A stretch of 62,148 bases of DNA, counting the filler. It is 7 parts of 7 records of this genome, joined end to end, with 100 filler letters (N's around TTAATTAATTAA, not from the genome) between each part and the next. Parts side by side here need not be neighbours in the genome. Positions count along the whole stretch, not along the records: positions 56,854 to 62,148 come from SRR31147125_9229; 6 more parts are not named here. One strand, 5' to 3'. A program made the translations under genes and the position numbers. Each line of letters opens with the position of its first letter. The first letter of the stretch is position 1. The notes below the pieces were generated by a model. It was not told the DNA's origin. It saw only the letters and a program-made list of their open reading frames with translations, and ran no database searches. This document shows, one piece after another, positions 47,530-62,148 of the stretch.

Positions 47530-49068
47530 TTAGAATACTAACTGGGCGAGTGGCGGAATCGGCAGACGCAAGGGATTTAAAATCCCTTGAGATAATATCT
47601 CGTACGGGTTCAAGTCCCGTCTTGCCCACCAATTTGTATCACTTGGGTCAATGGCATTTAATGTGTCGTTGACCCTTGTTTTTATAGGGTTTACGCTGTT
47701 TGACACTGGGTTTGCTAGTGTGTTCTGGGTTGGCTCTTCTTCTTGTCTCTGTCTAAAACTCGCCTGTGGGGTATCAGTGGAATCCGCACCGTTAGGCAAG
47801 AAATAGGCAACATTTGGGATACTTTTTGATGTCTGAAAGTCTCCTAAATTTGCAGCGTCTTCAGTTCCGGTAGCTTCTGCTACTCCACTTTCAATATTAA
47901 TCTCTGGTAATGCTGATACCGCCATCCTCTTGTCATCTAAGAGGATATGAGTGTAGTGCTTCATTGTTAGGTTGATGTCACTGTGCCTCATGAGACGTTG
48001 AGCGGTCTGCGGTTGGACACCACTACGGGATAGTAATGAGCAAAAGGTATGACGTAATGCGTGAAAGTCGGCTTTCCCGTACTCGTTTTCATATTCTATT
48101 TCTGATACCTCAAGGTCTCGTTTGAGCATCGGTGCGCCAGACTTTGCTTGCATGTTTATGAATGCATGTGCGCGTGGTAGAGCAGGGTGGTCAGTAAAGT
48201 ACTCATGCAGGGCTGCTGTAAGCTCTGAGCGTAACGGGAGAGTATCGGTCTTGCTGTTCTTTGCGTTGACGTCTCTGACTGTTACGGACATGTTTATTAA
48301 ATCGAGGTCACCACGTTTGAGGGTGCGTATCTCGTTATGTCTAAGACCTGTCTCTAGGGCTAGGTGGTAGACAAGTGCTCTTTCTCTTCCGGTCAATTTG
48401 TGGTGTTTCTTTTCTGACTGCATGGTGGTTGTGATAAGTCTTGCCACTTCGTCTTCAGTGAGTGCTCTTCGTTGCTCTGTGTTTTCAGAATTCAACCTGA
48501 TTGGCTTGAGTGTAGCGACTGGGTTGTCTTGTAGTCTGTTGTTATCACAAAGCCACTTGCAGAATTGTTTCATTGCTTGTAAGTAGTGATTGCAGGATTT
48601 GGCTGAGAGTTTGGTCTGGTACATCTTGGTCATCCAAGAGTCAGTCTTGTTTCCAGAGATATCACGAGCGTAGGTAAAATTACAATCCTCAATCATTCTG
48701 CTAAGTCTTGAGTTTAAAAGTTGCACCTGACTTGATTGTAGCTTGCCTTTGCTTGCTTGATCAGTTTGGTACTGTATGAAGTCTGCAAGGTGCATCTGGA
48801 TAGTTTTTGATTTCTCAAGCTGTGACTGTGAAAGTAGTCCGTACTTGACAAGTTTCTCTTTCATGTAGTTTGGTAGATTTTCAAGCCAGATAGTAAGCTC
48901 TCTATCAGGTCGCTCTCCTGCAACCAGACACGCATCAAGTGCAGAAATGTTTTCCTCTAGCTTCATAGCAGCTCGTTTGTCTGTATATGTTGACATGCGG
49001 ATACGACCGCCTGACTTGAGGTATAGGCTTAGTTGATATTTGCCGTTTTTTAGTTTGTGTATGCTCAT
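47530..49068 (-). CDS. tyrosine integrase; ORF continues antisense through tRNA-Leu
   Basis: TGLRHNE (R), AKNSK (K), FHALRHTF (HxxR), MRHSD (H), KHYTH (Y). Confidence 0.93.
   Translation of the reverse strand: MSIHKLKNGKYQLSLYLKSGGRIRMSTYTDKRAAMKLEENISALDACLVAGERPDRELTIWLENLPNYMKEKLVKYGLLSQSQLEKSKTIQMHLADFIQYQTDQASKGKLQSSQVQLLNSRLSRMIEDCNFTYARDISGNKTDSWMTKMYQTKLSAKSCNHYLQAMKQFCKWLCDNNRLQDNPVATLKPIRLNSENTEQRRALTEDEVARLITTTMQSEKKHHKLTGRERALVYHLALETGLRHNEIRTLKRGDLDLINMSVTVRDVNAKNSKTDTLPLRSELTAALHEYFTDHPALPRAHAFINMQAKSGAPMLKRDLEVSEIEYENEYGKADFHALRHTFCSLLSRSGVQPQTAQRLMRHSDINLTMKHYTHILLDDKRMAVSALPEINIESGVAEATGTEDAANLGDFQTSKSIPNVAYFLPNGADSTDTPQASFRQRQEEEPTQNTLANPVSNSVNPIKTRVNDTLNAIDPSDTNWWARRDLNPYEILSQGILNPLRLPIPPLAQLVF
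47544..47631 (+). tRNA. tRNA-Leu(TAA)
   Basis: Acceptor GGGCGAG/CTTGCCC-A-CCA, D-loop TGGCGGAATCGGCAGACGC, anticodon stem AGGGA-TT-TAA-AA-TCCCT, long variable arm, T-loop GGTTCAAGTCCC. Confidence 0.97.
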
Positions 49069-49137
49069 AGAAAATTGCCTTTATGGTGATATGCAAGTAA
49101 ATGTAATGTGTTTCTTTGGAATAAGAAATAGCTTGTG

Positions 49138-49971
49138 TTATTCTATAGCTAGCAGTAATTCATTAAGATCTAAATAATTAATGAATTTTTGGTTATCAAA
49201 ATTTAAGTAATGATTTATGATTGGAGTGCTTATATTCATAGTCGTTTGAGGTATGCGGTTTAACCAAAATATGAAGTTTGCAAAGGTATCGCATCCAAAT
49301 TCACAGTAGAATAGCCCTTCACTTTCGTTATGAATGTCAATGTACGACCCTTTTTTAGAGTTAAATACAATCCCCAAGTTGTTAATAATGATAGCATCAA
49401 ACTGATGAATTCTTGAAATCTTATTATCGCAGTAATAAGAAACGATCTTAGCTACCAATTCTCTGGTATCATTAAAAGCATTATCACAAAATATAAATGA
49501 GGGTATAGTTAAGGATGTTTTTGTTTGATCTTTAGTGATATTGCCATAGGTTTGCATAAAGTTTCCTTGCATATAGTGCTTTTTTCGGGTTAGTTTTTTT
49601 ACAGACTCAATTTGTTTTAATGCTCTGTTGAGTTCGGAAGTTGTTGATAAATCAGGTTTTAGCTCGATTGCAAAGTCTACACCTTCTGCAAAAATAAACG
49701 AATATTTATTATCTTTATCAATAGTATAAGGATGGTTCGGGTTGATTACCAAACAGTCAATCGAAGCACTTCTAGCTCCAAAAGAGTCATTTATATTTCC
49801 TTTGGTAATGCGATATGGGAAAGGGAAATATTTTTCTAAAAATGATTTAAGTGCTGCTTCGCGACGGTCAGAAACCTCTTGTGGTGTTCCGAGACCTTCA
49901 AGGCTTGCTTTACTAAAAGCTAGAGAGAGTTCGTTTGCTTCAATTTTTAATAATTCTAATATATCAGCCAT
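49138..49971 (-). CDS. DUF6602-like PD-(D/E)xK nuclease-fold protein
   Basis: RE..L.SFL.KYFP..Y.I.KG.I.DS.G..S..ID...AIELK pattern. Confidence 0.65.
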   Translation of the reverse strand: MADILELLKIEANELSLAFSKASLEGLGTPQEVSDRREAALKSFLEKYFPFPYRITKGNINDSFGARSASIDCLVINPNHPYTIDKDNKYSFIFAEGVDFAIELKPDLSTTSELNRALKQIESVKKLTRKKHYMQGNFMQTYGNITKDQTKTSLTIPSFIFCDNAFNDTRELVAKIVSYYCDNKISRIHQFDAIIINNLGIVFNSKKGSYIDIHNESEGLFYCEFGCDTFANFIFWLNRIPQTTMNISTPIINHYLNFDNQKFINYLDLNELLLAIE

Positions 49972-50063
49972 ATTGCAATGCTCCAGTGTTTTTCTGCTAA
50001 AGTTGTGGATAGGTGGCAGTTTTTTATTAAGTATAGGATTAGTTTGTATGTGTCATTTTTTAT

Positions 50064-50498
50064 TTATGAACTAACAGTTTTTTTAACAGATACTATTTTG
50101 CCAGTTTTTGCAGATCTACGTTGGATTTTTGGTTTATATGAGTCTTCATTGACTGTAAGTTGTGAGGCCTTTATATTAAGTGGATTTTTGGCGATTTTCT
50201 CAGATAATTGTATGACACCTGCGAGTTCTCTTTTTCCTTCTTTACTAAGTAAGTACTTGCTTGAATCGTACCCAGATTGTAATCCTTGCCAGAACTCTAT
50301 GGTAGTGTTGGTCGCTTTTGCTACGATTGCGCATACACGTGGAGACATGTCACGTCTGCCGTGGCAGGTGTCTGATAGTATTACTCTGTGTATGCCCATT
50401 GCAGCAGCAGCTTTGGTAATGCTTATTCCCATTGGCTTGAGGAATTCTTCAAGAAGAATCTCGCCGGGGTGTGTTGATACTCTATTCTTTGGTAACAT
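50064..50498 (-). CDS. higA: HigA antitoxin (HTH) with C-terminal extension
   Basis: THPGEILLEEFLKPMGIS, FWQGLQSGYD. Confidence 0.9.
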   Translation of the reverse strand: MLPKNRVSTHPGEILLEEFLKPMGISITKAAAAMGIHRVILSDTCHGRRDMSPRVCAIVAKATNTTIEFWQGLQSGYDSSKYLLSKEGKRELAGVIQLSEKIAKNPLNIKASQLTVNEDSYKPKIQRRSAKTGKIVSVKKTVSS

Positions 50499-50525
50499 AT
50501 CGAAACTCCTTAGTTACAATTAGTA

Positions 50526-50807
50526 TTAATGATAATCTATGATCTGAACATCAATCGCATCTTTGCCTTGCCACTTGAATATGATGCGCCACTGGTTGTT
50601 GATTCTGATGCTGTAATAACCTTTGTAATTTCCCTTTAATGCTTCAAGTTTATTGCCGGGAGGTACACGTAGATTCTCAAGGACATCAGCATAGTTTATC
50701 ATATCAAGTTTACGGCATGCTTGCTTTTGAAGCTCACCGGAGAAGCCTTTGACTCTATTGCCATCAAAGACATTCTCTGTTCGTTTATCCTTAAAATTTA
50801 AGATCAT
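50526..50807 (-). CDS. higB: HigB toxin
   Basis: MILNFKDKRTE, LRVPPGNKLEALKG, YSIRINNQWRIIF, IIDYH. Confidence 0.93.
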   Translation of the reverse strand: MILNFKDKRTENVFDGNRVKGFSGELQKQACRKLDMINYADVLENLRVPPGNKLEALKGNYKGYYSIRINNQWRIIFKWQGKDAIDVQIIDYH

Positions 50808-50880
50808 TGTAAATCCTTATATTCATCGATACTGTTATTGTAACTCAAGGAGTTTCGATTTGCAAGTTTAATTAACTACT

Positions 50881-51195
50881 TTATGCAGTTAAATTTTCCC
50901 ACTCTGACCTATTTGGACATCCTGCATCAGTCCAAGCGATAAGTTCTTCACGTCTCCAGCGGACTCGGCTGTTAAGCCGGACAGGAGAAGGGGTTTTTCC
51001 TTCCGAGTTCAGAGTGTACCACATTGATTTACTAACTCCTACGAAGGTCGCTGATTCGCCAGCATCAAGAAGAAGATTATCCCGCTTCCCCAGTGCCGAT
51101 TTTACAGCTTCAGCGACTGCTGTTGCAAAGTCAACGGGGTTCGTATTGATTGTTACTTGTTCGCTATCCTGTGCGTTATCTGTAATGCTATTCAT
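50881..51195 (-). CDS. AlpA-family excisionase/regulator
   Basis: GVSKSMWY...GKTPSPVRL..RVRWRREEL..W; RBS AGGAGG. Confidence 0.85.
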   Translation of the reverse strand: MNSITDNAQDSEQVTINTNPVDFATAVAEAVKSALGKRDNLLLDAGESATFVGVSKSMWYTLNSEGKTPSPVRLNSRVRWRREELIAWTDAGCPNRSEWENLTA

Positions 51196-52495
51196 TGTTA
51201 TTGTCCTCCTTAGGGTCATAAATGCTTCCAGTAATTAGATCAAAAATAAAGTTAAGTCTTCCGGTCTGCCCGTGTCTGTTCTTACAGATATCGAGCTCCA
51301 GTGTTTCAGAGTCCGCATTCTTAGCTCTGTCACGATATAGCAGTATCACATGGTCTGCATCCTGTTCAATCGAACTCGATTCTTTCAAGTGCCAGAGCTT
51401 TGGTCTATCACTATCTTTGGCTCTTCCTGCCTTTGCACCATCTCGTGAAAGTTGGGCTAGGGCAATTATTGCAACGTTGTACTTGGTGGCTAAGTGCTTG
51501 CATGTACGAGATATTTCGTCGATTCGCTCTCTTGAATCCTGACCGGAATAGCTAGCTCTGCATTGCTGGATGTAGTCCAATACAACCAAATCAACATCCT
51601 TGTGGTGCTTCGCTACCATGTAGGTGAAGTCATTGGCTGTTATCGTACCGTTTGCATGAATTCGTAGAGGAAGCTTTGAAAACTCGTCAACAGCCAAGTT
51701 ATGCCTCTCTGAATAGTTTTCCTTCGTTGATTCCTTAGCTTTCCCTGCTCTGAGCATCCTGCACGCTCCTTGTGGGACGCCTGAGAGAGTAGAGACTATC
51801 CTATCTTCAATAGACTGCAAATTCATCTCCTGAACTACATACATACATCTAACTGGTTCTTCTGCTTTGCAAGCTCTGCTGATAATATTTAGAGCAAGCT
51901 GAGATTTGCCGATAGAAGTAGAACCACCGATTACTGTTACACTACCACGATCAAAACCACTACCAAAGAATGCATTTAGTGCTTCATACCCAGTATTTAC
52001 AGGTGAAATAGTGACACCATTTCGGTTAAGCTCGACGACTCTATCTGCTGTTGGAGTCATTGTAGTGTATCTCGTGGATATCTCATCGATTCGATCTGAC
52101 AAGTTCTTACAGACATCACTGATTCTGACGTGTCTATGTAGCTTGTCAATTGATAAGAAACATGCATCCTCTAGCTCTCGATTTTTCCACTGTTCAGCCA
52201 ATCGCTCAGCGTGAATAGCAGTCTGACTCGCAGACACAGCAATTGTCGTCCAATCGGATATCGCTTTTCCTCCACCTGCATCAATTTTGCGATTCTCAAG
52301 CTCATGCCGCAGAATAACAGGGTCTAATCCATCCCCTTCGCAAAGCTCAAGCATTACCTTGTAAACCTCTCCAAATTCTGAGACTGAAAAGTATTCAGGC
52401 TTGATAACCCTGCTAACATCAGATATTACCTCAGGATCAAGCAGTATCCCACCAAGAATACAGATCTCCGTCTCGTGATTATTACTTAAAACCAT
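51188..52495 (-). CDS. DnaB-like replicative helicase
   Basis: E..ILGGILLDP, GGSTSIGKS, VLDYIQ, ALAQLSR, LKESSSIEQDAD, KNRHG. Confidence 0.9.
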   Translation of the reverse strand: MVLSNNHETEICILGGILLDPEVISDVSRVIKPEYFSVSEFGEVYKVMLELCEGDGLDPVILRHELENRKIDAGGGKAISDWTTIAVSASQTAIHAERLAEQWKNRELEDACFLSIDKLHRHVRISDVCKNLSDRIDEISTRYTTMTPTADRVVELNRNGVTISPVNTGYEALNAFFGSGFDRGSVTVIGGSTSIGKSQLALNIISRACKAEEPVRCMYVVQEMNLQSIEDRIVSTLSGVPQGACRMLRAGKAKESTKENYSERHNLAVDEFSKLPLRIHANGTITANDFTYMVAKHHKDVDLVVLDYIQQCRASYSGQDSRERIDEISRTCKHLATKYNVAIIALAQLSRDGAKAGRAKDSDRPKLWHLKESSSIEQDADHVILLYRDRAKNADSETLELDICKNRHGQTGRLNFIFDLITGSIYDPKEDNNNE

Positions 52496-52593
52496 TTTTA
52501 CTTCCTTTCATAAAATGTGAAGCCAAAATTAAAATGAAAGTCGCGACTTATAAACATATTAGTTTCCTAGGATAAAATTTATAAAATTTGTAA

Positions 52594-53016
52594 TTAGTAC
52601 GTGATAGCTCTAGTTTCACCCAAATCATCATTTCTGCTTTCAGAAATACTATTGTTTATTGAATAGGGACTATTTTTGAGGGCAATATCCCCGTCATTTT
52701 GTGGGTCACTTTTTGAACAGTTGTCATTATCTTTGAGTGAATTGAGTTTATAGATATTACTTCTCGCATATCTTCTTGAAGTCGTAAGGATGCCAACTTT
52801 CTCAAGTATTCTTAGTTGCCTCCTAAGAGTCTCTAATGAGACACCAGCACGCCTAGCAAGACTAGCCTGATCAATACCCGTGGTCATGGTTGAACCATCA
52901 ACATAAGATGCTAGAGCAATCAGAACCGCAAGAGCGGTTGCTTTCAGTTTCTTTTGTTCGACTAGCTCTAATCCATTGCATCCAATTGCAGTATTTATAT
53001 ACTTGATCTTGTTCAT
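52594..53016 (-). CDS. winged-HTH protein (replication initiator-like)
   Basis: SLARRAGVSLETLRRQLRILEKVGIL...SNIYKL. Confidence 0.7.
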   Translation of the reverse strand: MNKIKYINTAIGCNGLELVEQKKLKATALAVLIALASYVDGSTMTTGIDQASLARRAGVSLETLRRQLRILEKVGILTTSRRYARSNIYKLNSLKDNDNCSKSDPQNDGDIALKNSPYSINNSISESRNDDLGETRAITY

Positions 53017-53188
53017 GTTCTAATCCCTTCGTAATTTTTAATCAATCATTTCTTCTTGTTTCTTTTGCCCGCTATACTTTCAGAATACACTAAATCTAAA
53101 GCCGTACAAGCTCCGTATATACAATTCACAATATACAATCAAAAACTTTGTAACAACCTATAGCTATATATGTTATATCTATGTAATC

Positions 53189-53227
53189 AATAAGCTCCGC
53201 ATCAAAATCATTGATACGGAGCTTATT
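53189..53227. repeat. 17-bp-arm inverted repeat (terminator or origin hairpin)
   Basis: AATAAGCTCCGCATCAA / TTGATACGGAGCTTATT, one mismatch. Confidence 0.75.
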
Positions 53228-53251
53228 AAAGGGCAATACGGTGAATGAGTT

Positions 53252-54270
53252 TTATTTGGTTAGGTAATATTCGTGCTCTTGCTTTGATAAAGCATTAAAT
53301 ATTTCTTTTTCTGAATTAAAATCTTTCAAACATACCCTACGATCTGTTTTATCTACATCTTTAAAAAATACTTCATATGTAAGGTTCGCAAGACAACGTT
53401 TTTCATATATCATCAATTCAGATTTCGGATTTGACAAATATCCTTTCATCTCATTTAACTCATGTTCATTTATAAGAATCATTAACATATCTCTAGTAGA
53501 ACTTGAATTAGAGTTATCTCCGGTAACTGCTATTGTATAATCTTTTCGAGAAAGAGCCTTGATTTTTTGAACATCAGTGCCACCTTCTGATTTATTGAGT
53601 ATCTTGGACTGAGAGTGCAATGAGTATTTATTTACGATTTCATTTTTAATGTTAGAAGAATTTGATGACCTGTTATCGTTGTATATTGTTGAATCATTGG
53701 AGTTGTCTGACATATCGACAAGTGTTTTATGGATACTATTGTCTGAAAATTCGGCATTAATGCTCTTCTCAGAGTAATCAAAATTATTATTGTTTGTTGT
53801 TTCTGATTGAGAGATATTAATAAAATTGATAACAGAAGTAGGTTTGTCATCATTACCCTTATTAGGTATTTCACAGTATTTAAATTTTTTAGCTTTTCGC
53901 AATAATCGTGAAGAGAGGTTTTTCTAGATTTTTTCAAGAATTTAATAAGTGGACTAACACAAATTCTCAGATATTGTAAATAGTATAGAAAAACACCTAC
54001 AGAAATTAATAACATTATAGTAATGTTCACAGCCGATAACTCTAAACTATTAAACACCTCGTTTACTAACACCATAAATATGGATATGCCAATAATTCTG
54101 TAAATGGTAGGGAGATATAGTACTGTCCAGTTGTTATATTTCTTCTCTAATCGCTTGGTATATAGTATTAGCCATGACAAGAAAATTAAGAATGGTATAA
54201 AAGGAATCTGCATTATGCCAAAAATGAAATATATAAAAAGAATCATTAATATTGGTATTGACGAATTCAA
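53252..54270 (-). CDS. membrane hypothetical protein, apparently split by a frameshift
   Basis: Overlapping ORFs 53632-54270 (TM-rich) and 53252-53902 (Asn/Ser-rich). Confidence 0.5.
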
Positions 54271-54469
54271 ACTTACTGCAATACGATCAAATAGAGCTGA
54301 TTTTCGATATGTTGAGATATTATCTCAATCGTATACGAACAAAACAGCGAAGTACCCAAGGGTTGGGTGCTGGCTGTTTCGTATACGGGCGCTTGGCGGC
54401 GCTGATGTGATGAACGGTTCGGCGCCCTTTTTTACTTGGCTCTCGAACCATCATTATTCGAGGACTGCC

Positions 54470-54958
54470 ATGAAAAATAAAAATATATTAACACCCAATA
54501 AATTACTGCTTGCCCTATTCTGGGCGTTCGTGATCATTTTAAGTATTCAACTCTATTCTCATGCAGCGCAACATGATAGATATGTTGTTGGGACTGTCAT
54601 AAAAGTACGTGACGGTGATACCATCACAGTCAGAGTTGCCAACACTGATGAGATACTTGAGGTGCATCTATACGGCATAAATGCGCCTGAGAATAACAAA
54701 CCTTATTACACAGAAGCATCCCAATTCCTCAGCTATCAAGTACTTGGTAAGCTGGTAGAATTGTATATTACTGGTAAGGGTAAATACAATCGTTATATTG
54801 CCAAAGTGTATTGCAATTCAAAATACATCAATCTAATGCTAGTCTCAACTGGACTGGCGGTTCATTATAAACAATTCTCAAAAGATAAAGACCTTGCTCT
54901 GGCTGAAACTGAAGCAAGGCGGTGTCGTATTGGAATATGGGAAAAGAAATCTAAATGA
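54470..54958 (+). CDS. thermonuclease (SNase) family protein with signal/TM segment
   Basis: VRDGDTI, LYGINAPE, KYNRYIA, INLMLV..GLA, EAR..RIGIW; GAGG RBS before ATG 54470. Confidence 0.88.
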   Translation: MKNKNILTPNKLLLALFWAFVIILSIQLYSHAAQHDRYVVGTVIKVRDGDTITVRVANTDEILEVHLYGINAPENNKPYYTEASQFLSYQVLGKLVELYITGKGKYNRYIAKVYCNSKYINLMLVSTGLAVHYKQFSKDKDLALAETEARRCRIGIWEKKSK

Positions 54959-55020
54959 TTCTGCATAAGAAGAAGTGAATCCACCAATGATATATAAGTA
55001 GGTTATAAGAAAGGATTATT

Positions 55021-55221
55021 ATGGGTGCTAATGGTGACAATACAGCTAATGTGATTGCTGGTCTAGCGAGTTCCTTCATTCCTGGGTTGAGGTAGCTACT
55101 TCAGCAGAGGTATTTTGCAGCGGTTATATATTTTGGTTTTTCTGTGTTCTTTTGGTTCTTCTTTATGGGGTAGATAGTAAGCATTGTTTCTTGTATTAGT
55201 GCTTTAAGATATAGGAACTAG
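55021..55221 (+). pseudogene. small membrane protein pseudogene
   Basis: MGANGDNTANVIAGLASSFIPGLR*LLQQR... resembles NVIA.LASFFIPGLGQL.QGR small proteins; internal TAG stops and a frameshift. Confidence 0.55.
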
Positions 55222-55275
55222 TCTGGGGTCTGTAATAAATCTTTTGTGTGTGATTAATAGTGATAAGGGGTAATA

Positions 55276-56753
55276 ATGAATAAAAGCAACATTGTTAGTG
55301 CAGCAATTATTATAGTGCTGTTGTTTGTGGTAGGCTGTGGGAGCGATTCGGATAAAGCCCAAGGGGTTTGGAAAGATACTAGGGGTAAAGATTTAATTCA
55401 TACCCATTTTGTAGAGATTGGCAAAGATTATGTTGTTATTGATGGGAAGCGAGAAGATGGTCTCGTTCTTGTCGATATTGATGATGCTGTAATGGTGCAG
55501 ACGGCTGGGTCAAGGAAAGATGTCATGCGCCTTGTTTTACACGATGATGATACCCTGACAATTGAAATTCCGTTACTAGGTAAGCAGAAACTTGTTAGGT
55601 CTTCAAAAGAGGAAATTGCAGCAAAAGAGAAGTTGGTTGCAGAAGCAAGAGAGGTTGCATTCAAAAAAGCTGAGTCTGAGCGCATAGCTAAAGAGAAAAA
55701 AGCTGAAGAAGAGCGTATTATCAAAGAGAAGAAGATAGCAGATCTTTGTGGTATTTGGAAAGAATCCGGTAGTGATAATTTATTAAGTACTAAGTTCTTT
55801 GAAATTGGAAAAGACTTTCTTGTTATAGAAGATACCCGTATTGATGGCATTGAGTTGGTAGTAAATGCTGATGATAATGAGGTTTTTATTAAGCAGCTCG
55901 GGAGGGAAATGTACATAGGTGACAAAGGTTTTTATGCACAGCTTGAAGGCTCAAATACATTAATACTTGATCTTCCAAGACATGGTAAGGTCAAACTGAT
56001 TAAAACCTCATACAGTGAAAAAGAAGATAGAGATAGAGCTTTAAGTGAAAGATACAATACTCTAATAGGAAAATCGTACGGTACATGGGTAAGAGATATT
56101 GATGAGAACAAATACAGAAGTCCTATGGATTATCAATACAACCCTATCGTGATTACAAAGGATTCATTGACTTATGATAATAAAAGTAAATCAATCCTTT
56201 TCTCTAGGTATTCAGAGGTCGCAGGTAAATCTATGCCGTACTTACCAGCGATTGGCTATGCGGATAACTCTAAAGAATACACCTTTTGTATTACATCCTT
56301 TGATGATAACAATAATACAATGAATACTGTTACAACGAATTGGAAGAAACGTAAAGCAAAGTATGCTAGAATCGATCCAGCAAATATTCGCTTACACGAC
56401 AACCCAAGTATTGATTATATTAAAGGTGGTTGGGCTAAAGAGGGTGATTCAAAAGACGGGTATAATGTTATCGCCTTTTCAAAGGAATTGCTCTATTGTG
56501 ATGGGCATAGCATGAAGGTAATTGATAAGGCTGATAACAAATCTCCACAACTCTCAATTAGAAGGGCGGGCGATAAGGATGAGTGTCTTATGGATATTGT
56601 TCAGTTTGACCCTGATACCATTAAGGTCATGTATAATGAAGGTAATATATGGCATACATATAAAAGGATGAGTAGTTCTGATGCTAAAAAGGCTATGTCT
56701 AATTACTCTGATAAAATCAAGTTGCTTCAAGGATACTGGAAGTCCGAAAGTCC
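55276..56753 (+). CDS. lipoprotein with repeated G.W-initiated beta domains, 3' partial
   Basis: Lipobox FVVGC; QGVWKD, CGIWKE, YGTWVR, KGGWAK, QGYWKS repeats. Confidence 0.8.
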
Positions 56754-56853
56754 NNNNNNNNNNNNNNNNNNNNNNNNNNNNNNNNNNNNNNNNNNNNTTA
56801 ATTAATTAANNNNNNNNNNNNNNNNNNNNNNNNNNNNNNNNNNNNNNNNNNNN
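56754..56853. other. artificial contig spacer
   Basis: N-run with TTAATTAATTAA. Confidence 0.99.
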
Positions 56854-56857
56854 CCCT

Positions 56858-56884
56858 GCCGGCTGTCCCGCAGCCGGCTTTTTT
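56858..56884 (+). terminator. intrinsic terminator
   Basis: GCCGGCTG-TCCCG-CAGCCGGC followed by T6. Confidence 0.8.
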
Positions 56885-56891
56885 ACCCGAA

Positions 56892-57920
56892 TTAAAACTG
56901 TTCAAATAATCTTGTCTGTATCAGTAGATCAACCAGTGCGGGATCAAACTGTTTACCACTGTTATCTGTAAGTTCCAGCAGGGTCTCTTCAAGTGAAAGG
57001 CATGTACGGTATGAACGGTCGCTGGTCATAGCATCAAATGCATCTGCAAGTGTCACTATGCGTACGAGTAAAGGTATTTGTTCACCCTTTAATCCATCGG
57101 GGTATCCATTTCCATCGTAGCGTTCATGGTGGCTTCTGACGATAGGGATATAGGGGGTGAACATATCTATATGTTTTAGAATTTTCTCTCCGGCTTCCGG
57201 ATGCGTTTTAATCATATTGTATTCATTACCGGTGAGTCGTCCCTTTTTATTGAGAATACTTTCCGGTATACCGATTTTTCCTATATCATGCATCAGAGCA
57301 CCGCCTTCCAATATGGTGAAGTCTGATTCTGATATTCTGAGTTCGCGGCCAATCTTAATGGAAATTTCTTTTACTCGGTTGCAGTGACCTTTAGTATAGG
57401 GATCCTTCTGTTCTATTGTTTCAGAAAAAGCCTTAATTGTGGCCATCGTGGTGCGCATGATTGTATGATGCGCGTCTGTTAGCTGATCTTCCAGAATACG
57501 CTGCTGCTGATTGCTGGTCTGGTATTGTTCATGCTGTTTATAGCGTTGCTTTGATTTACTGATAGCATCAGTTACTCTGCGGATCAGTTCACTGCGTCTG
57601 ACTGGTTTAGATAGATAATCTTCAGCACCTTTTCTTATGGCATTCATGCCGGTATCCAAATCGGTAAAAGCAGTCAGCATGATAATCGGAATATAGGGAT
57701 ATTCTTTCTTTAAAATACCCAGCAGATCCAATCCGGAAATGCCCGGCATTTTAATATCCAGGACAATGCAGTCTACCGGTTTTTCATTGTATTGAAGAAA
57801 TTCCAATAGGTTAGTGCCGCTTTCACATATAGAAACATCAAAGCCTTCTTTCTTCAAAATTATCTGGAGAATTTTTCTGATTGCCGCATCATCATCGGTT
57901 GCAACAATATGGTAGGGCAT
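56892..57920 (-). CDS. REC-HD-GYP response regulator (cyclic dinucleotide phosphodiesterase family)
   Basis: TDDD, LDIKMPG, YLSKP; TKGHCNRV, HDIGKIG, HHERYDGNGYP. Confidence 0.95.
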   Translation of the reverse strand: MPYHIVATDDDAAIRKILQIILKKEGFDVSICESGTNLLEFLQYNEKPVDCIVLDIKMPGISGLDLLGILKKEYPYIPIIMLTAFTDLDTGMNAIRKGAEDYLSKPVRRSELIRRVTDAISKSKQRYKQHEQYQTSNQQQRILEDQLTDAHHTIMRTTMATIKAFSETIEQKDPYTKGHCNRVKEISIKIGRELRISESDFTILEGGALMHDIGKIGIPESILNKKGRLTGNEYNMIKTHPEAGEKILKHIDMFTPYIPIVRSHHERYDGNGYPDGLKGEQIPLLVRIVTLADAFDAMTSDRSYRTCLSLEETLLELTDNSGKQFDPALVDLLIQTRLFEQF

Positions 57921-57940
57921 GTTGGTTACTCCTGGGTAAA

Positions 57941-58540
57941 TCAGCGTTTAGTCCAAAAAGGTCGCATAAACAACTGTTTATACGGCAGTAGAAACGGTAC
58001 ATTCTGTTTGTACTTTATATAATTTTGAAATAGTTTGGGAAAAATGTATATATCCTCGAAAAGAATAAGAATAAGATTGAAAATGGTCAATAGAGCAAAT
58101 AGTAAAACAATACCCCAATTTAGATAGAGGCCGGAAAAGAGTATGTTTATAGCGGTCAGCCACAGAAAACCCGGATGTCTGGAAAAACTATATGTTCCTT
58201 CTGTATATACTTTACGGATGCCATCTGGAAGCTGTACACTTTGTTTTGCGTTTTCCTTGCTCTTTCTGTGCAACATTATGGGAATTTCTATGAAAACAGA
58301 GTAGACAAGCAGCAGAAAAAATAGGAGTATAAAGAAAGCTATAACTATTTTCAGAAAGTCCGGCAATGCATTCGAAGGATTATACCCGATTACTATAATA
58401 ATATATGGTATAAAAATAATTCCATAGCCGATATAAGTAATAAAAGTAATTATTTTCATACTCTTGATTTGTGAAAAATCGTGCATGCATAAGAGGAAAT
58501 AACCTGCTGCAGAAAGTAAAATTAAATTGCCTAAATTCAT
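57941..58540 (-). CDS. isoprenylcysteine carboxyl / phospholipid methyltransferase family membrane protein
   Basis: EGTYSFSRHPG, FED, YIKYKQNVPFLLP. Confidence 0.8.
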   Translation of the reverse strand: MNLGNLILLSAAGYFLLCMHDFSQIKSMKIITFITYIGYGIIFIPYIIIVIGYNPSNALPDFLKIVIAFFILLFFLLLVYSVFIEIPIMLHRKSKENAKQSVQLPDGIRKVYTEGTYSFSRHPGFLWLTAINILFSGLYLNWGIVLLFALLTIFNLILILFEDIYIFPKLFQNYIKYKQNVPFLLPYKQLFMRPFWTKR

Positions 58541-58596
58541 GTTTTTCCTGTACTATAATGTATTGCGGTGATAGAAACTAATATAAAGGATATACT

Positions 58597-61500
58597 ATGA
58601 TTTTTGATATTTCTACTATTATTCCTGCTATGGCTTTCATAATATATGTATTCTTTGTTATTTTTGGTTTCTTTCAGTACCGCAGAGTAGGTTTCTACTG
58701 GTCTTTTCAATTTTATGTCGTGGGTGTAGCCGTTTGGAGTTTCGGATCATTCATGATGCATCTCAACAGCCATATATTGACACCGCTGATTTGGAACAAG
58801 TTCATGCTTGTCGGTTTGCTTTCGGTTCCTTTTACCCTTATCCATGCCGTTGTTGATATCATGGAATTGAGCAACAGACGCTACAGAGTATTTGTAAAAT
58901 TCAGCTATTCGCTGATTGCGTTGCTGATGTATTTCAATTTCAGCGGATCCATTGTTACAGATGCGGGTTTTACACCGGAAGGTATTTTCTTTTACGACCT
59001 GGGTCAGGGAGCCATAGTTGCGTATTCAATAAGTTATGCGTACTTGATCATAACATTAAGTATAATGGTTTTCGAGAGCCGCAAGAACAGCAATCCGAAT
59101 ATACGGAGGAAGTTGGTTCTTCCGCTGATTGGTACGGTTATCATGCTGGTTGGAATTCTCTTCAACCTGATACCTGTGCTTGGTAAGTACCCGTTTGATA
59201 TTCTTGCAGCCGCAATTCATGCGTTTATTCTTTTTTATACCATTAACAGATTCAGTCTGCTGAACTATTCCCGTATAGCTCTGCAGGTAATGCTGGTAGT
59301 TATTCTTTCTGTTTCAGCGACGGTTATCTATCTGCTGCTGATATTACTCATACGCCAATTTAATCCCGGGTTTGCGCCGTATGATATTTTACCGATTGCG
59401 ACCATTCTCGGGTTTACCACAGCATTGGTAATATCACCTCTGAGAAGCTTCATGGCCTACATAGTTGATAAGATTATCATTCCTCGCCGTCATCCCTATC
59501 AAAGTGTGATTCGTCAGCTCAGCCAGAGGCTCACCACTGTTATAGATTTGGATGAATTGGGGGATGAAGTTATTTCCAGCCTGATAACAGGTCTAAAGGT
59601 GAATTGGGCAATATTTATTGTTGAGAACATTAAAGAGAAGAATAATGAGTTTATTCTGCTGTCAAGCCGCAGCTGCCCGACAAATCTTACAGTTGGAGAT
59701 GTGGTTGAACTGAATTTCTCGGATTCACTTCAGAAAAAGATTTACTTTCTACAGTCACAGGATACAAACTCATTGATATATTCTGAAAGACATGACGAGG
59801 CGTTTAAGGTAAGTGAGAGTTTACCTTACGCGGATATCATCATACCGCTTATATACCGTAAGCAGGTATCAGGTTATATCATGGCTGGTTTTCCTGAAGC
59901 AAAAAAGGTCATATCCAACTATGAAACAGAGGCATTGGAAATTCTGTCAACGCAGTGTTCGCTATCATTAAAAAATGCTTTGTCGTTTGAACATATCAAA
60001 GCACAGGGTGATGAACTGACTTTAAGCAATAACAAACTGGAAGCAATATTTAACGGTATTGCTTCCCCAGTTGCCATGACCGATGTAGATTATTCCATTA
60101 TGGAAGTAAATAACGCTGCGACGATTTTCTTTGGTAAAGAACGCGAAAAGATGATTGGCGGTAAATGCTATCGTGAATTTTTTGGCCGATCACGCCCCTG
60201 TGAATTCTGCAAATCTCTGGACTGTATTCATGGCGGAGTCATGATTGAGACTGAAGCTGAAGTCAACAACGGAACATATTCATTTCAGTTCAATAATGTG
60301 CCGGTACCGCAGAAAAAGAAATTGGTATTTATAGAGCTTATCAAAGACATTACCGAACAGAAACGGTTGCAGAACGATTTAATCAGGACCGAAAAGATGG
60401 CTGGGATTGGTGAAATGGCAGCCGGAATTGCACATGAGTTGAATAATCCACTAGCTGGTATTGCCGGAACTGCGGAAATAATACTTTCCGAAGTAGACGA
60501 CAGTTCAACGGTCAAAGAGTATGCCGAGGATATTCTGAATTATTCGATGAACGCGGCTGAGGTAATTAAAGAGCTATCGGTTTATACAAGAAAAGAGGAA
60601 AAACAGCAGCAGGATGTTGATTTAATTCGTATCCTGGAATTCGCGCTGCGGCTGGCAACCCGTGGTATTGATTCACATGAAATAAATATAACCCGAAATT
60701 ATCATGCTCTGCCGCAGATTAAAGCCAATGAAAGTGAACTGCAGCAGCTGTTTCTGAATTTGATAGTGAATGCTATTCAGGCCATGGAAGGGAAGGGCGA
60801 TTTAACACTTTCCTGTTATGAAGAAAATGGATCGGTTTACATCAAAGTGACGGATACCGGATGTGGTATACCACAGGAAAATTTGAACCAGATATTTATG
60901 CCTTTTTTTACTACGAAACCTCCCGGAACCGGTACAGGCTTAGGACTTTCCAACTGTTTCAGCGTAGTGGAGAACATGTCAGGCAGACTCAGAGTGGAAA
61001 GTAAGGTAGATGTTGGTTCAACTTTTACCGTTATCTTCCCATTTACCGAAGCTGGTAAAAAGGCTGTTAAGTTCTATCTGGTACGCAATGAACCGTCCGC
61101 TCTTAATGATGTATTTTATCTGCAGCGTAAGGTACTCATCGGTGAGAAAGGATATATAGAAGAATCTATTCATCGAACTTTGGATGAAGATGCACTGCAC
61201 ATTATTGCCTATAAAGGCATACATCCGGTAGGTACGGTTTCTCTTCTTCCATCAAACAAGTTCTGGCCGCTGCCGGTCTCGGAATACTTTGACCTGAATA
61301 GCATGATTCAGCGAGAAAACAGCGCCGAAATTATTCGTCTGGCAGTATTGCCTGATATGCGTAATACAACGGTTTCTATTGGTCTTATCATGCTTGTTTT
61401 TCTGCTTGCGCGCACTATCGGAGTTAAAGACCTGGTTATTGATGTTTTTAAGGATGATGAGAAAACCATTAACTTGTATAAGAAATTCGGCTTTTTTGAG

Positions 61501-61746
61501 GTTGGGGAATATTACTCTCCTGAAGCAGTAACTGTTCTCATGCTTAACGGCAAATCATCTCTGGAGATGGATGAGAATCGCTTGAAACGATTTATTAAAC
61601 CGTTGTATATGAAACTTATCGATTTATTTGATTTCGGTGATCTCAATGATGCTATCATAGCTGAAATGGAAAAAATAATACCATTGGAGCGTAATAGAAA
61701 GAGAGCAAAAGTCATCGCAATAGAAGAGGGGAAGAAAAAAGAATAA
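58597..61746 (+). CDS. HisKA_7TM-like-GAF-PAS histidine kinase fused to a C-terminal GNAT (LuxI/FeeM-like) acyltransferase domain
   Basis: Multi-TM N-terminus; GIAHELNNPL, LIVNAIQA, DTGCGI, FFTTK, GTGLGLS; then VGTVSL, LPVSEYF, AEIIRLAVLPDMR, LYKKFGF. Confidence 0.88.
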   Translation: MIFDISTIIPAMAFIIYVFFVIFGFFQYRRVGFYWSFQFYVVGVAVWSFGSFMMHLNSHILTPLIWNKFMLVGLLSVPFTLIHAVVDIMELSNRRYRVFVKFSYSLIALLMYFNFSGSIVTDAGFTPEGIFFYDLGQGAIVAYSISYAYLIITLSIMVFESRKNSNPNIRRKLVLPLIGTVIMLVGILFNLIPVLGKYPFDILAAAIHAFILFYTINRFSLLNYSRIALQVMLVVILSVSATVIYLLLILLIRQFNPGFAPYDILPIATILGFTTALVISPLRSFMAYIVDKIIIPRRHPYQSVIRQLSQRLTTVIDLDELGDEVISSLITGLKVNWAIFIVENIKEKNNEFILLSSRSCPTNLTVGDVVELNFSDSLQKKIYFLQSQDTNSLIYSERHDEAFKVSESLPYADIIIPLIYRKQVSGYIMAGFPEAKKVISNYETEALEILSTQCSLSLKNALSFEHIKAQGDELTLSNNKLEAIFNGIASPVAMTDVDYSIMEVNNAATIFFGKEREKMIGGKCYREFFGRSRPCEFCKSLDCIHGGVMIETEAEVNNGTYSFQFNNVPVPQKKKLVFIELIKDITEQKRLQNDLIRTEKMAGIGEMAAGIAHELNNPLAGIAGTAEIILSEVDDSSTVKEYAEDILNYSMNAAEVIKELSVYTRKEEKQQQDVDLIRILEFALRLATRGIDSHEINITRNYHALPQIKANESELQQLFLNLIVNAIQAMEGKGDLTLSCYEENGSVYIKVTDTGCGIPQENLNQIFMPFFTTKPPGTGTGLGLSNCFSVVENMSGRLRVESKVDVGSTFTVIFPFTEAGKKAVKFYLVRNEPSALNDVFYLQRKVLIGEKGYIEESIHRTLDEDALHIIAYKGIHPVGTVSLLPSNKFWPLPVSEYFDLNSMIQRENSAEIIRLAVLPDMRNTTVSIGLIMLVFLLARTIGVKDLVIDVFKDDEKTINLYKKFGFFEVGEYYSPEAVTVLMLNGKSSLEMDENRLKRFIKPLYMKLIDLFDFGDLNDAIIAEMEKIIPLERNRKRAKVIAIEEGKKKE

Positions 61747-61766
61747 AGCGAAGAAGGCATAGCTAA

Positions 61767-62148
61767 TTATTCAAATTTTCGTCTAATTGCTTTTAAGACA
61801 GTTCTGTACGGCAGTACAGCAGCTAAAAAAGAACGTAATTTTGCCGATGTGCCAATCCCTGTTCGGATTGGCATTTTTTTCTTTCTGCAATAATGCGGTA
61901 TATTCCAGAAGCGACATAATCGGGATTCATACCGTTTTCAATGAGGTTGTCACGCATAGTTTTATATGCTGTTTCTCTTTTATGATATAAGCTGCTGTTT
62001 GAGGAAGTGTATTCCTGCGGCAGGCCGGTACGCACATAGTCGAAATAAATTATACCTGTTTCAATTCCAAATGGGATAATTTCTCCGTGTAATGCTAATG
62101 AATAAGCTTCCAATGCAGCCTTAGAGGCGGCGTACATCCCGGAAAAAG
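61767..62148 (-). CDS. SDR family oxidoreductase, 5' partial, apparent frameshift at the T7 run near 61877
   Basis: YAASK catalytic motif; shifted frame gives typical C-terminus PIRTGIG...LP...RRKFE*. Confidence 0.8.

Follow-up and report, generated by a model that had tools for sequence, protein, structure and literature searches.

Can a membrane histidine kinase carry, where a receiver domain would usually lie, an acyltransferase of the kind that makes acylated signals, and what would such a protein do? This question was raised by a gene at positions 58597..61746 (plus strand) of a 62,148-nt stretch of DNA (the window, whose positions are used throughout), in the part (56,854–62,148) that comes from SRR31147125_9229. 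An initial annotation had described the gene as a sensor histidine kinase fused to a LuxI/FeeM-like acyltransferase. Our analysis, made from sequence comparisons and structure models, gives a probability of about 0.5 to the reading that the protein is a kinase with a second, enzymatic output, namely an N-acyltransferase of a FeeM/LuxI-related clade, in a three-gene signalling unit with an Rpf/DSF-like (diffusible signal factor) organisation.

Architecture of the kinase–GNAT protein

The open reading frame was uninterrupted as reported, and the motifs quoted for it (VFYLQRKVL..EKGY, LDEDALHI, VGTVSL, LPVSEYFDL, AEIIRLAVLPDMR and LYKKFGF) were all present in the 1049-residue translation. The start Met was invariant among 42 aligned homologues. 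The domain order is seven-transmembrane (7TM) sensor, GAF-like domain, PAS, HisKA, HATPase, FeeM-like GNAT and helical tail. The gene, its domains and the two adjoining genes are as follows (REC, receiver domain; ICMT, isoprenylcysteine carboxyl methyltransferase).

58597..61746, plus strand: whole sensor kinase–GNAT gene; ATG start, 1049 codons and a stop, no internal stops
58633..59265, plus strand: HisKA_7TM membrane sensor, residues 13–223 (Pfam PF16927, E 4.4e-10)
59548..60006, plus strand: divergent GAF-like alpha/beta domain, residues ~318–470 (GAF in relatives; secondary structure of the model)
60031..60366, plus strand: PAS, residues ~479–590 (Pfam PAS_9 at 491–587, PAS and PAS_8)
60409..60600, plus strand: HisKA dimerisation and phospho-acceptor domain, residues 605–668 (Pfam E 1.8e-10; H613 codon at 60433–60435)
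60727..61047, plus strand: HATPase_c catalytic ATP-binding domain, residues 711–817 (Pfam E 7.6e-25)
61066..61551, plus strand: FeeM-family GNAT core, residues ~824–985 (Pfam PF21926; codon of the putative general base E911 at 61327–61329)
61552..61743, plus strand: C-terminal helical extension, residues ~986–1049 (model helices; conserved E990, P1002 and F1011–G1014)
57941..58540, minus strand: ICMT/PEMT-like putative methyltransferase, a 199-residue membrane protein (profile, PDB and Atlas matches)
56892..57920, minus strand: REC-HD-GYP response regulator, 342 residues (Pfam Response_reg 6–116, HD_5 164–329)

The multi-transmembrane sensor, PAS, HisKA and HATPase modules of the initial annotation were recovered by Pfam as HisKA_7TM, PAS_9, HisKA and HATPase_c, and predicted helices continued past HisKA_7TM to about residue 298 in the AlphaFold model of the full-length protein. 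The GAF domain was borne out only in part. GAF families had no Pfam match in the protein at E<=1, whereas GAF was significant at the equivalent position in relatives of 31–35% identity (for example, residues 316–454 of P0184), and residues 318–470 formed an alpha/beta unit in the full-length model with a block-wise predicted local distance difference test score (pLDDT) of mostly 73–88. Over the whole chain, this model had a pLDDT of 70.7 and a predicted TM-score (pTM) of 0.42, with values below 50 in the PAS domain and at the start of HisKA.

In 42 full-length homologues, the kinase motifs were invariant (H613; N721/N725; D753-G755-G757; F767/F770; G777, G779, G781 and G783). A sensor histidine kinase needs a phospho-acceptor His together with N, G1, F and G2 boxes; these residues supply all of them, and by its motifs the kinase is intact and complete. 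Pfam found no Response_reg match in the protein, which consequently does not have the composition of a hybrid kinase; the place of the receiver is taken, as had been claimed, by a GNAT domain that matched FeeM above the cut-off. Within the PAS domain (window 60166–60210), three cysteines, C524 (in K523-C524-Y525), C535 and C538, were invariant and could coordinate a metal or hold a redox cofactor; model confidence is low in this region.

Conservation and family placement of the GNAT domain

The match to FeeM (PF21926) covered residues 850–971 and scored 41.8 bits (E 1.2e-10) against a curated cut-off of 27, which made FeeM the best GNAT-type Pfam model for the C-terminal domain; Acetyltransf_1 matched residues 857–966. 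The GNAT part is under strong constraint: 49 positions between residues 826 and 1002 were invariant in 42 sequences, including Q843-R-K, G849-E-K-G-Y853, P877-x-G-T-V-S882, P893, E911, R914-L-A-V917, R922, Y961 and G965-F966. A model of the domain alone, built with AlphaFold from 45 sequences, had a pLDDT of 91.8 and a pTM of 0.87 and showed, at domain residues 5–165, the beta-sheet core of a GNAT and, after it, three helices up to residue 229 (174–229). The length of about 230 residues given initially for the GNAT domain thus holds for core and tail together, but the core itself ends near residue 985; some 65 further residues form a helical tail, which is conserved to about residue 1027 and of low complexity beyond.

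The E-x-x-R-L-A-V pattern, which had been taken as typical of N-acyl amino acid synthases (NAS) and related N-acyl homoserine lactone (AHL) synthases, corresponds to the invariant E911 and R914-L-A-V917. In a search of the PDB, the relative P0123 aligned its laEacRFAi over vwELSRFAa of the AHL synthase TofI (3P2F), and in the 45-sequence alignment the same stretch of P0123 was in register with SAEIIRLAV of the window. Glu occupied the E911 column in 44 of the 45 rows, stand-alone enzymes included. On the strength of this register through P0123 with ELSRFA of TofI, we equate E911 with the Glu in the E-x-x-R motif of LuxI and NAS enzymes. E911 would therefore be the counterpart of the active-site glutamates Glu95 of FeeM and Glu103 of Nas354. 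The Tyr of the YkkfGF motif we take to be the usual general acid of GNAT enzymes. According to PMC4897644, Glu is the general base in LuxI and FeeM enzymes, and exchange of Glu103 for Ala in the PilZ-fused synthase Nas354 abolished haemolytic and surface-active phenotypes that were tied to its N-acyltyrosine product; the mutagenic primer given there encodes I-A-(E>A)-V-S-A-L, that is, a motif I-A-E-V-S-A-L.

A phmmer search against 1.84 billion representatives returned 69 proteins at E<=1e-3, of which 32 were scanned against Pfam. Four of the 32 (P0100, P0102, P0104 and P0105) represented the fused kinase form itself, as fragments or variants. Among the other 28, FeeM was found at or above the 27-bit cut-off in 23 and below it in P0126, while Autoind_synth was matched in a single distant relative (P0134). 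Most of these proteins were about 180–250 residues long and 25–35% identical. Three further fusions were seen among the distant relatives, the first two of them within the 24 with a FeeM match: REC-FeeM (P0112, 316 residues), PilZ-FeeM (P0121, 335 residues, with PilZ N-terminal and hence in the order opposite to the published Nas354) and FeeM-HMG-CoA-reductase (P0139, 340 residues).

In structure space, the CoA-dependent AHL synthases BjaI, RpaI and MesI gave the widest Foldseek coverage (query-normalised TM-score 0.59–0.62 over 209–225 columns), and the profile of the GNAT domain reached both FeeM (2g0b, E 2.8e-6) and BjaI (E 7e-6) in the PDB. Kinship to exosortase-associated acyltransferases, also proposed initially, found no support as a family match: that model was absent among the 10 NCBIfam families found at E<=1 with the 230-residue domain. 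Look-alikes in the ESM Atlas, which we use as a lead only, were generic clusters of GNAT proteins, and in some of these a portion of the members carried Acetyltransf_5 or FeeM. From its sequence, then, the domain is a GNAT with catalytic-type residues that falls under the Pfam definition of FeeM and outside the LuxI and exosortase-linked NCBIfam families. The original label LuxI/FeeM-like accordingly is borne out by Pfam for its FeeM half but not for membership of LuxI. Taken as a whole, the domain occupies an intermediate position between the types of YjcF/SACOL1063 and of FeeM/LuxI.

Spread of the fusion and the three-gene unit

When residues 825–1049 were used as the query and proteins of 576–1836 residues as targets, the same architecture was found in 90 protein clusters, with 43–78% identity in the GNAT part. 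All 90 clusters were pre-annotated with PF21926 together with HATPase_c and HisKA, and most of them also with HisKA_7TM. Many independent assemblies are represented, among them complete chromosomes of 2.8–4.4 Mb, and the carriers identified by name include Sphaerochaeta pleomorpha str. Grapes and Sphaerochaeta sp. PS. When each species was scanned through a single genome, 281 pattern matches were obtained, 236 of them in stretches that encode a relative, almost all from Spirochaetota. For the analysis of synteny, 75 of the 236 confirmed loci were kept, all from species-representative genomes; the taxa were Sphaerochaeta, Pleomorphochaeta, Spirochaetales, Treponemataceae and Rectinemataceae. 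Outlying bin labels (Cloacimonadota in the species scan, Bacteroidetes and Brocadiales in the cluster search) are presumably binning errors.

In the reverse direction, the FeeM domain was present in 93 of the 101 relatives of sensor residues 1–480 (E<=1e-10), so that sensor and GNAT are inherited together in the kinase–GNAT family. One further sensor relative, P0184, had a sub-threshold FeeM match (23.8 bits). The chain ends after HATPase_c in P0186 and P0190 (21–25% identity) and continues with a REC domain in P0187 (23%), and P0188 and P0189, which are relatives of the sensor half, are GAF-GGDEF-HD-GYP proteins. At the position of the GNAT domain, the closest GNAT-less relatives thus carry nothing or a receiver. 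Two truncated entries without GNAT, P0169 (883 residues, ending about 65 residues beyond HATPase_c) and P0170 (614 residues), were 49–52% identical in the sensor half. Short, GNAT-only close homologues numbered seven (P0092–P0098). Five are on contigs of only about 1.1–1.6 kb, so the seven probably represent pieces of the fused gene and are no evidence for a split form, in which close homologues of the GNAT domain stand alone.

Clustering of open reading frames from the 75 loci and the window (76 sources) showed only three conserved families around the kinase, and tblastn searches with the neighbours agreed. The families occurred as follows.

Kinase–GNAT family: 73 of 76 sources
REC-HD-GYP regulator family: 55 of 76 sources
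199-residue membrane protein family: 55 of 76 sources
Next most frequent neighbour family: 22 of 76 sources

In the 55 informative loci (those with the N-terminus of the kinase and at least 1700 bases upstream), the regulator was present in 53, the ICMT-like gene in 52 and both in 50, always divergent from the kinase. The initial annotation had mentioned an HD-GYP regulator, and we found it next to the kinase (56892–57920, minus strand; REC at residues 6–116, HD_5 at 164–329); the ICMT-like gene that sits between the two had gone unmentioned.

The motifs of the regulator are intact. An RpfG-type response regulator is defined by the receiver Asp and the HD and GYP motifs, all of which are present (in VLDIKMPG, MHDIGK and HHERYDGNGYP, respectively), so that the protein is classed as one; its best NCBIfam match was a response regulator cyclic di-GMP (c-di-GMP) phosphodiesterase at 216 bits, below the cut-off of that model. 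We regard it as a putative c-di-GMP phosphodiesterase and the putative cognate partner of the kinase.

The 199-residue protein is hydrophobic and carries GTYSFSRHPGF and IFEDIYIFPKLFQNY; the corresponding motifs of its family are GTYxxSRHPGF and IEDxxxFPxxFxxY, with R121, H122, P123, G124 and D163 invariant. At E<=0.1, ICMT was matched by 26 and PEMT by 17 of 30 family members (best ICMT E-value, 1.9e-5). The sole PDB match of the family profile was the ICMT structure 4a2n (E 0.0025), in an alignment that pairs the RHP motif and the acidic pair (E-E/E-D) of the two. The top Atlas cluster for the protein was named 'Protein-S-isoprenylcysteine O-methyltransferase Ste14 family' (score 0.95). The protein is quite probably a membrane methyltransferase of the ICMT/PEMT superfamily.

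Between 56700 and 62148, promoter-like sites (14 versus 16.2 expected) and terminator-like sites (5 versus 3.8 expected) were at chance level. On the 3' side of the kinase, positions 61823–62146 (minus strand) hold the 3' part of a gene that runs off the end of the window and has a weak adh_short match (E 0.0019). A short-chain dehydrogenase-like gene occurred at this side in a minority of cases (5 loci by tblastn, 8 sources by clustering) and lies outside the conserved unit. Just upstream of the three-gene unit is a block resembling an integrative element (47530–56805), in which no direct repeats that might serve as attachment sites of the element were found between 47300 and 57100. Its features are listed below.

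47544–47631, plus strand: tRNA-Leu(taa), overlapping the 3' end of the integrase reading frame
47530–49068, minus strand: tyrosine integrase, 512 residues
49138–49971, minus strand: DUF6602 protein
51188–52495, minus strand: DnaB-like helicase
52594–53016, minus strand: helix-turn-helix protein
54104–54958, plus strand: SNase-domain protein
55276–56805, plus strand: 509-residue reading frame with no family match

Proposed function and comparison with known systems

The conserved unit suggests a lipid-linked signalling circuit. From the architecture, conservation, synteny and intact kinase, REC, HD-GYP and GNAT motifs, all directly established above, we infer its acyl donor and acceptor, the coupling of kinase and GNAT, the methylation and a role of the product in signalling. 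Input received by the 7TM, GAF-like and PAS domains would set the state of the kinase dimer, and autophosphorylation at H613 with transfer of the phosphate to the REC-HD-GYP protein would alter c-di-GMP breakdown. Because the linker from the ATP-binding domain to the GNAT domain is only about six residues, the same conformational change of the kinase likely gates the GNAT domain as well. The latter would take an acyl group from acyl-ACP or acyl-CoA and pass it to an amine, that of an amino acid being most likely, with E911 as the general base, and its product would probably be either an N-acyl amino acid or some other N-acyl amine. The substrates of ICMT enzymes are lipidated amino acids, which they methylate at the carboxylate. 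N-acyl amino acids resemble these in their chemistry, and the adjoining methyltransferase may therefore methyl-esterify the carboxylate of the product, which is speculation on our part.

Several results weigh against this proposal. By profile, the top PDB matches of the domain were the small GNATs SACOL1063 (E 7e-18) and YjcF (E 7e-15), and FeeM (2g0b) came only eighth (E 2.8e-6); a single-sequence search of the PDB, superseded by the profile search, had matched only these two proteins, over the N-terminal 60 residues. The Foldseek comparison recommended initially cut both ways, since AHL synthases had the widest coverage but SACOL1063 had the best E-value (TM-score on the target, 0.77–0.89), and 2g0b was absent among the best 50 matches. 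LuxI (Autoind_synth, PF00765) had no Pfam match at E<=1 in the protein, and NCBIfam gave weak, generic acetyltransferase matches below their cut-offs (best rimI, 23.3 bits versus 86.4). With its pTM of 0.42, the full-length model is too uncertain for the GNAT domain to be placed on the kinase. As for the neighbours, the 199-residue protein of the window itself scored 15.2 bits with ICMT in Pfam, below the curated cut-off of 24, and no conserved acyl carrier protein, fatty-acid or amino-acid genes were found nearby in the 75 loci and the window. The regulator was present and the ICMT-like gene not detected in L066, L070 and L073, and the reverse held for L064 and L075; in the branch of the former three, the methyltransferase would therefore be dispensable or relocated. 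These three loci are Treponemataceae-like, with kinases 38–40% identical, and in L070 the gap between regulator and kinase is about 240 bases.

The first of the points above leads to the strongest competing explanation, under which the C-terminal domain is an ordinary acetyl-CoA-dependent N-acetyltransferase acting on a protein lysine (for instance, of the REC-HD-GYP protein or of the kinase itself) or on a small amine; acetylation would then be a second layer of control beside phosphorylation. SACOL1063 and YjcF are the nearest solved relatives by profile and by fold, Acetyltransf_1 is above its cut-off (30.3 versus 20.7), the Tyr of lYkkfGF is aligned with FYESLNF of SACOL1063, and the NCBI family name is 'GNAT family N-acetyltransferase'. 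Yet SACOL1063 has Lys in the E911 column and an RGQGMG loop where the window has RNTTVS, it lacks, being only 144–146 residues long, the conserved WPLP..YF segment of about 25 residues (~885–910) that is common to stand-alone FeeM-family relatives, and the FeeM score exceeds that of Acetyltransf_1. Moreover, the function of SACOL1063 itself is unknown according to PMC8666670. We consider an acetyltransferase unlikely, at odds of perhaps one in four.

Clearly less credible is a GNAT domain that is non-catalytic and serves as a sensor of acyl-CoA or acyl-ACP, reporting lipid or energy status and tuning the kinase from its C-terminal side. Regulation of the kinase by acyl-CoA or acyl-ACP binding had been put forward initially, as had a single chain that makes and answers an acylated signal, and either may hold. 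A ligand could influence the kinase across the spacing of only about six residues after the ATP-binding domain, the loop that binds pyrophosphate departs from the canonical form and, the methyltransferase aside, no conserved gene for a substrate or a downstream pathway was found. Against such a module, E911 and Y961 are invariant, and the conserved Glu extends to stand-alone enzymes. The FeeM subfamily seems to have been recruited repeatedly by signalling domains, and its REC- and PilZ-fused members are laid out as regulated enzymes. PMC4897644 reports that the characterised PilZ-fused NAS is catalytically active and gives examples of NAS domains that signalling modules control or are joined to, namely PilZ and, as cited therein, the cyclic AMP-activated NasP. 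The REC- and PilZ-fused relatives, PilZ-NAS and NasP fit a regulated enzyme rather than a sensor.

The N-acyltransferase proposal can also be extended to a self-contained lipid autoinducer circuit, which we hold to be improbable, by a hair more so than the non-catalytic sensor. In it, an N-acyl amino acid would be made by the FeeM-like domain on the inner side of the membrane, the ICMT-like partner would methylate its carboxylate to give an N-acyl amino acid methyl ester (NAME), neutral and membrane-permeant, and the 7TM, GAF-like and PAS domains of the same protein would sense this ester, with c-di-GMP breakdown as the output. PMC11580390 describes NAMEs as AHL analogues for which no synthase gene is known. 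If such a circuit existed, it would be a spirochaete counterpart of Rpf/DSF with different chemistry and a synthase fused to its own receptor kinase.

Finally, an assembly or frameshift artefact that ran together two separate genes, one for a kinase and one for a GNAT, to which only the few short entries (P0092–P0098; P0169 and P0170) could point, is excluded for practical purposes because the junction is kept in 90 clusters from many assemblies and in 73 of 76 sources, and the fusion is genuine as first described.

The architecture is already present in databases under one of two uninformative names, 'GNAT family N-acetyltransferase' and 'PAS domain S-box protein'. A search of the full-text literature, with most subscription journals outside its scope, found no published description of a kinase fused to such a domain; there is one published precedent for the joining of NAS to a signalling module (PilZ), and Rpf is the precedent for a kinase with HD-GYP and a lipid signal. 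According to PMC4897644, N-acyl amino acid synthases have come to light chiefly through metagenomic clones, and it is still unclear what physiological part they play. Here, a putative NAS is hard-wired to a kinase and a putative c-di-GMP phosphodiesterase across a whole lineage that includes Sphaerochaeta strains which are cultured and non-pathogenic, in which the conserved three-gene unit makes the role of such synthases for their host directly testable. The unit thereby offers an experimental handle on the purpose of NAS, on a kinase-driven enzymatic output beyond phosphotransfer and on HD-GYP control in spirochaetes.

Compared with FeeM and Nas354, both N-acyl amino acid synthases, the domain shares the GNAT fold, a FeeM match above the cut-off and the Glu in an A-E-x-x-(R/A)-L motif; here, however, a complete membrane histidine kinase lies N-terminal to the putative enzyme, sequence similarity to FeeM is weak and the helical tail is extra. 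With the AHL synthases BjaI, RpaI and MesI (5W8A, 6WN0 and 6WNS) and TofI, it has in common an N-terminal motif of the R..VF..E.GW type and the E-x-x-R-(F/L)-A strand, at 15–16% identity and a root-mean-square deviation of 4.1–4.8 A to BjaI, RpaI and MesI; unlike LuxI-type enzymes, it shows no Autoind_synth match and no sign of S-adenosylmethionine use or lactone formation. To SACOL1063 and YjcF (5JPH/5JQ4 and 1Q2Y), the N-terminal half is very similar (51 bits over profile positions 13–71). These proteins have only 140–146 residues and neither the WPLP..YF insert nor the helical tail, and SACOL1063 has, beside the Lys in the E911 column, a Glu adjacent to the Arg, whereas Glu911 precedes Arg914 by three residues; its loop is the canonical R-G-Q-G-M-G, as opposed to R-N-T-T-V-S.

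Hybrid kinases with a REC domain have the same kinase core. The C-terminus here is an enzyme-type GNAT, which does not imply a phosphorelay. The most distant 7TM-GAF relatives end after HATPase_c (P0186) or carry REC there (P0187). The closest parallel in organisation is the Rpf/DSF system of Xanthomonas (RpfC, RpfG and RpfF), in which, as in the unit described here, a membrane kinase is paired with a REC-HD-GYP c-di-GMP phosphodiesterase. As summarised in PMC4504480, RpfC signals to RpfG and its REC domain binds the lipid-signal synthase RpfF. As a hybrid kinase, RpfC has REC and HPt domains, both of which the kinase–GNAT protein lacks; a diffusible signal is in evidence only on the Rpf side. 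RpfF is a separate protein of the crotonase family, whereas in the window the putative synthase is a GNAT domain covalently fused to the kinase.

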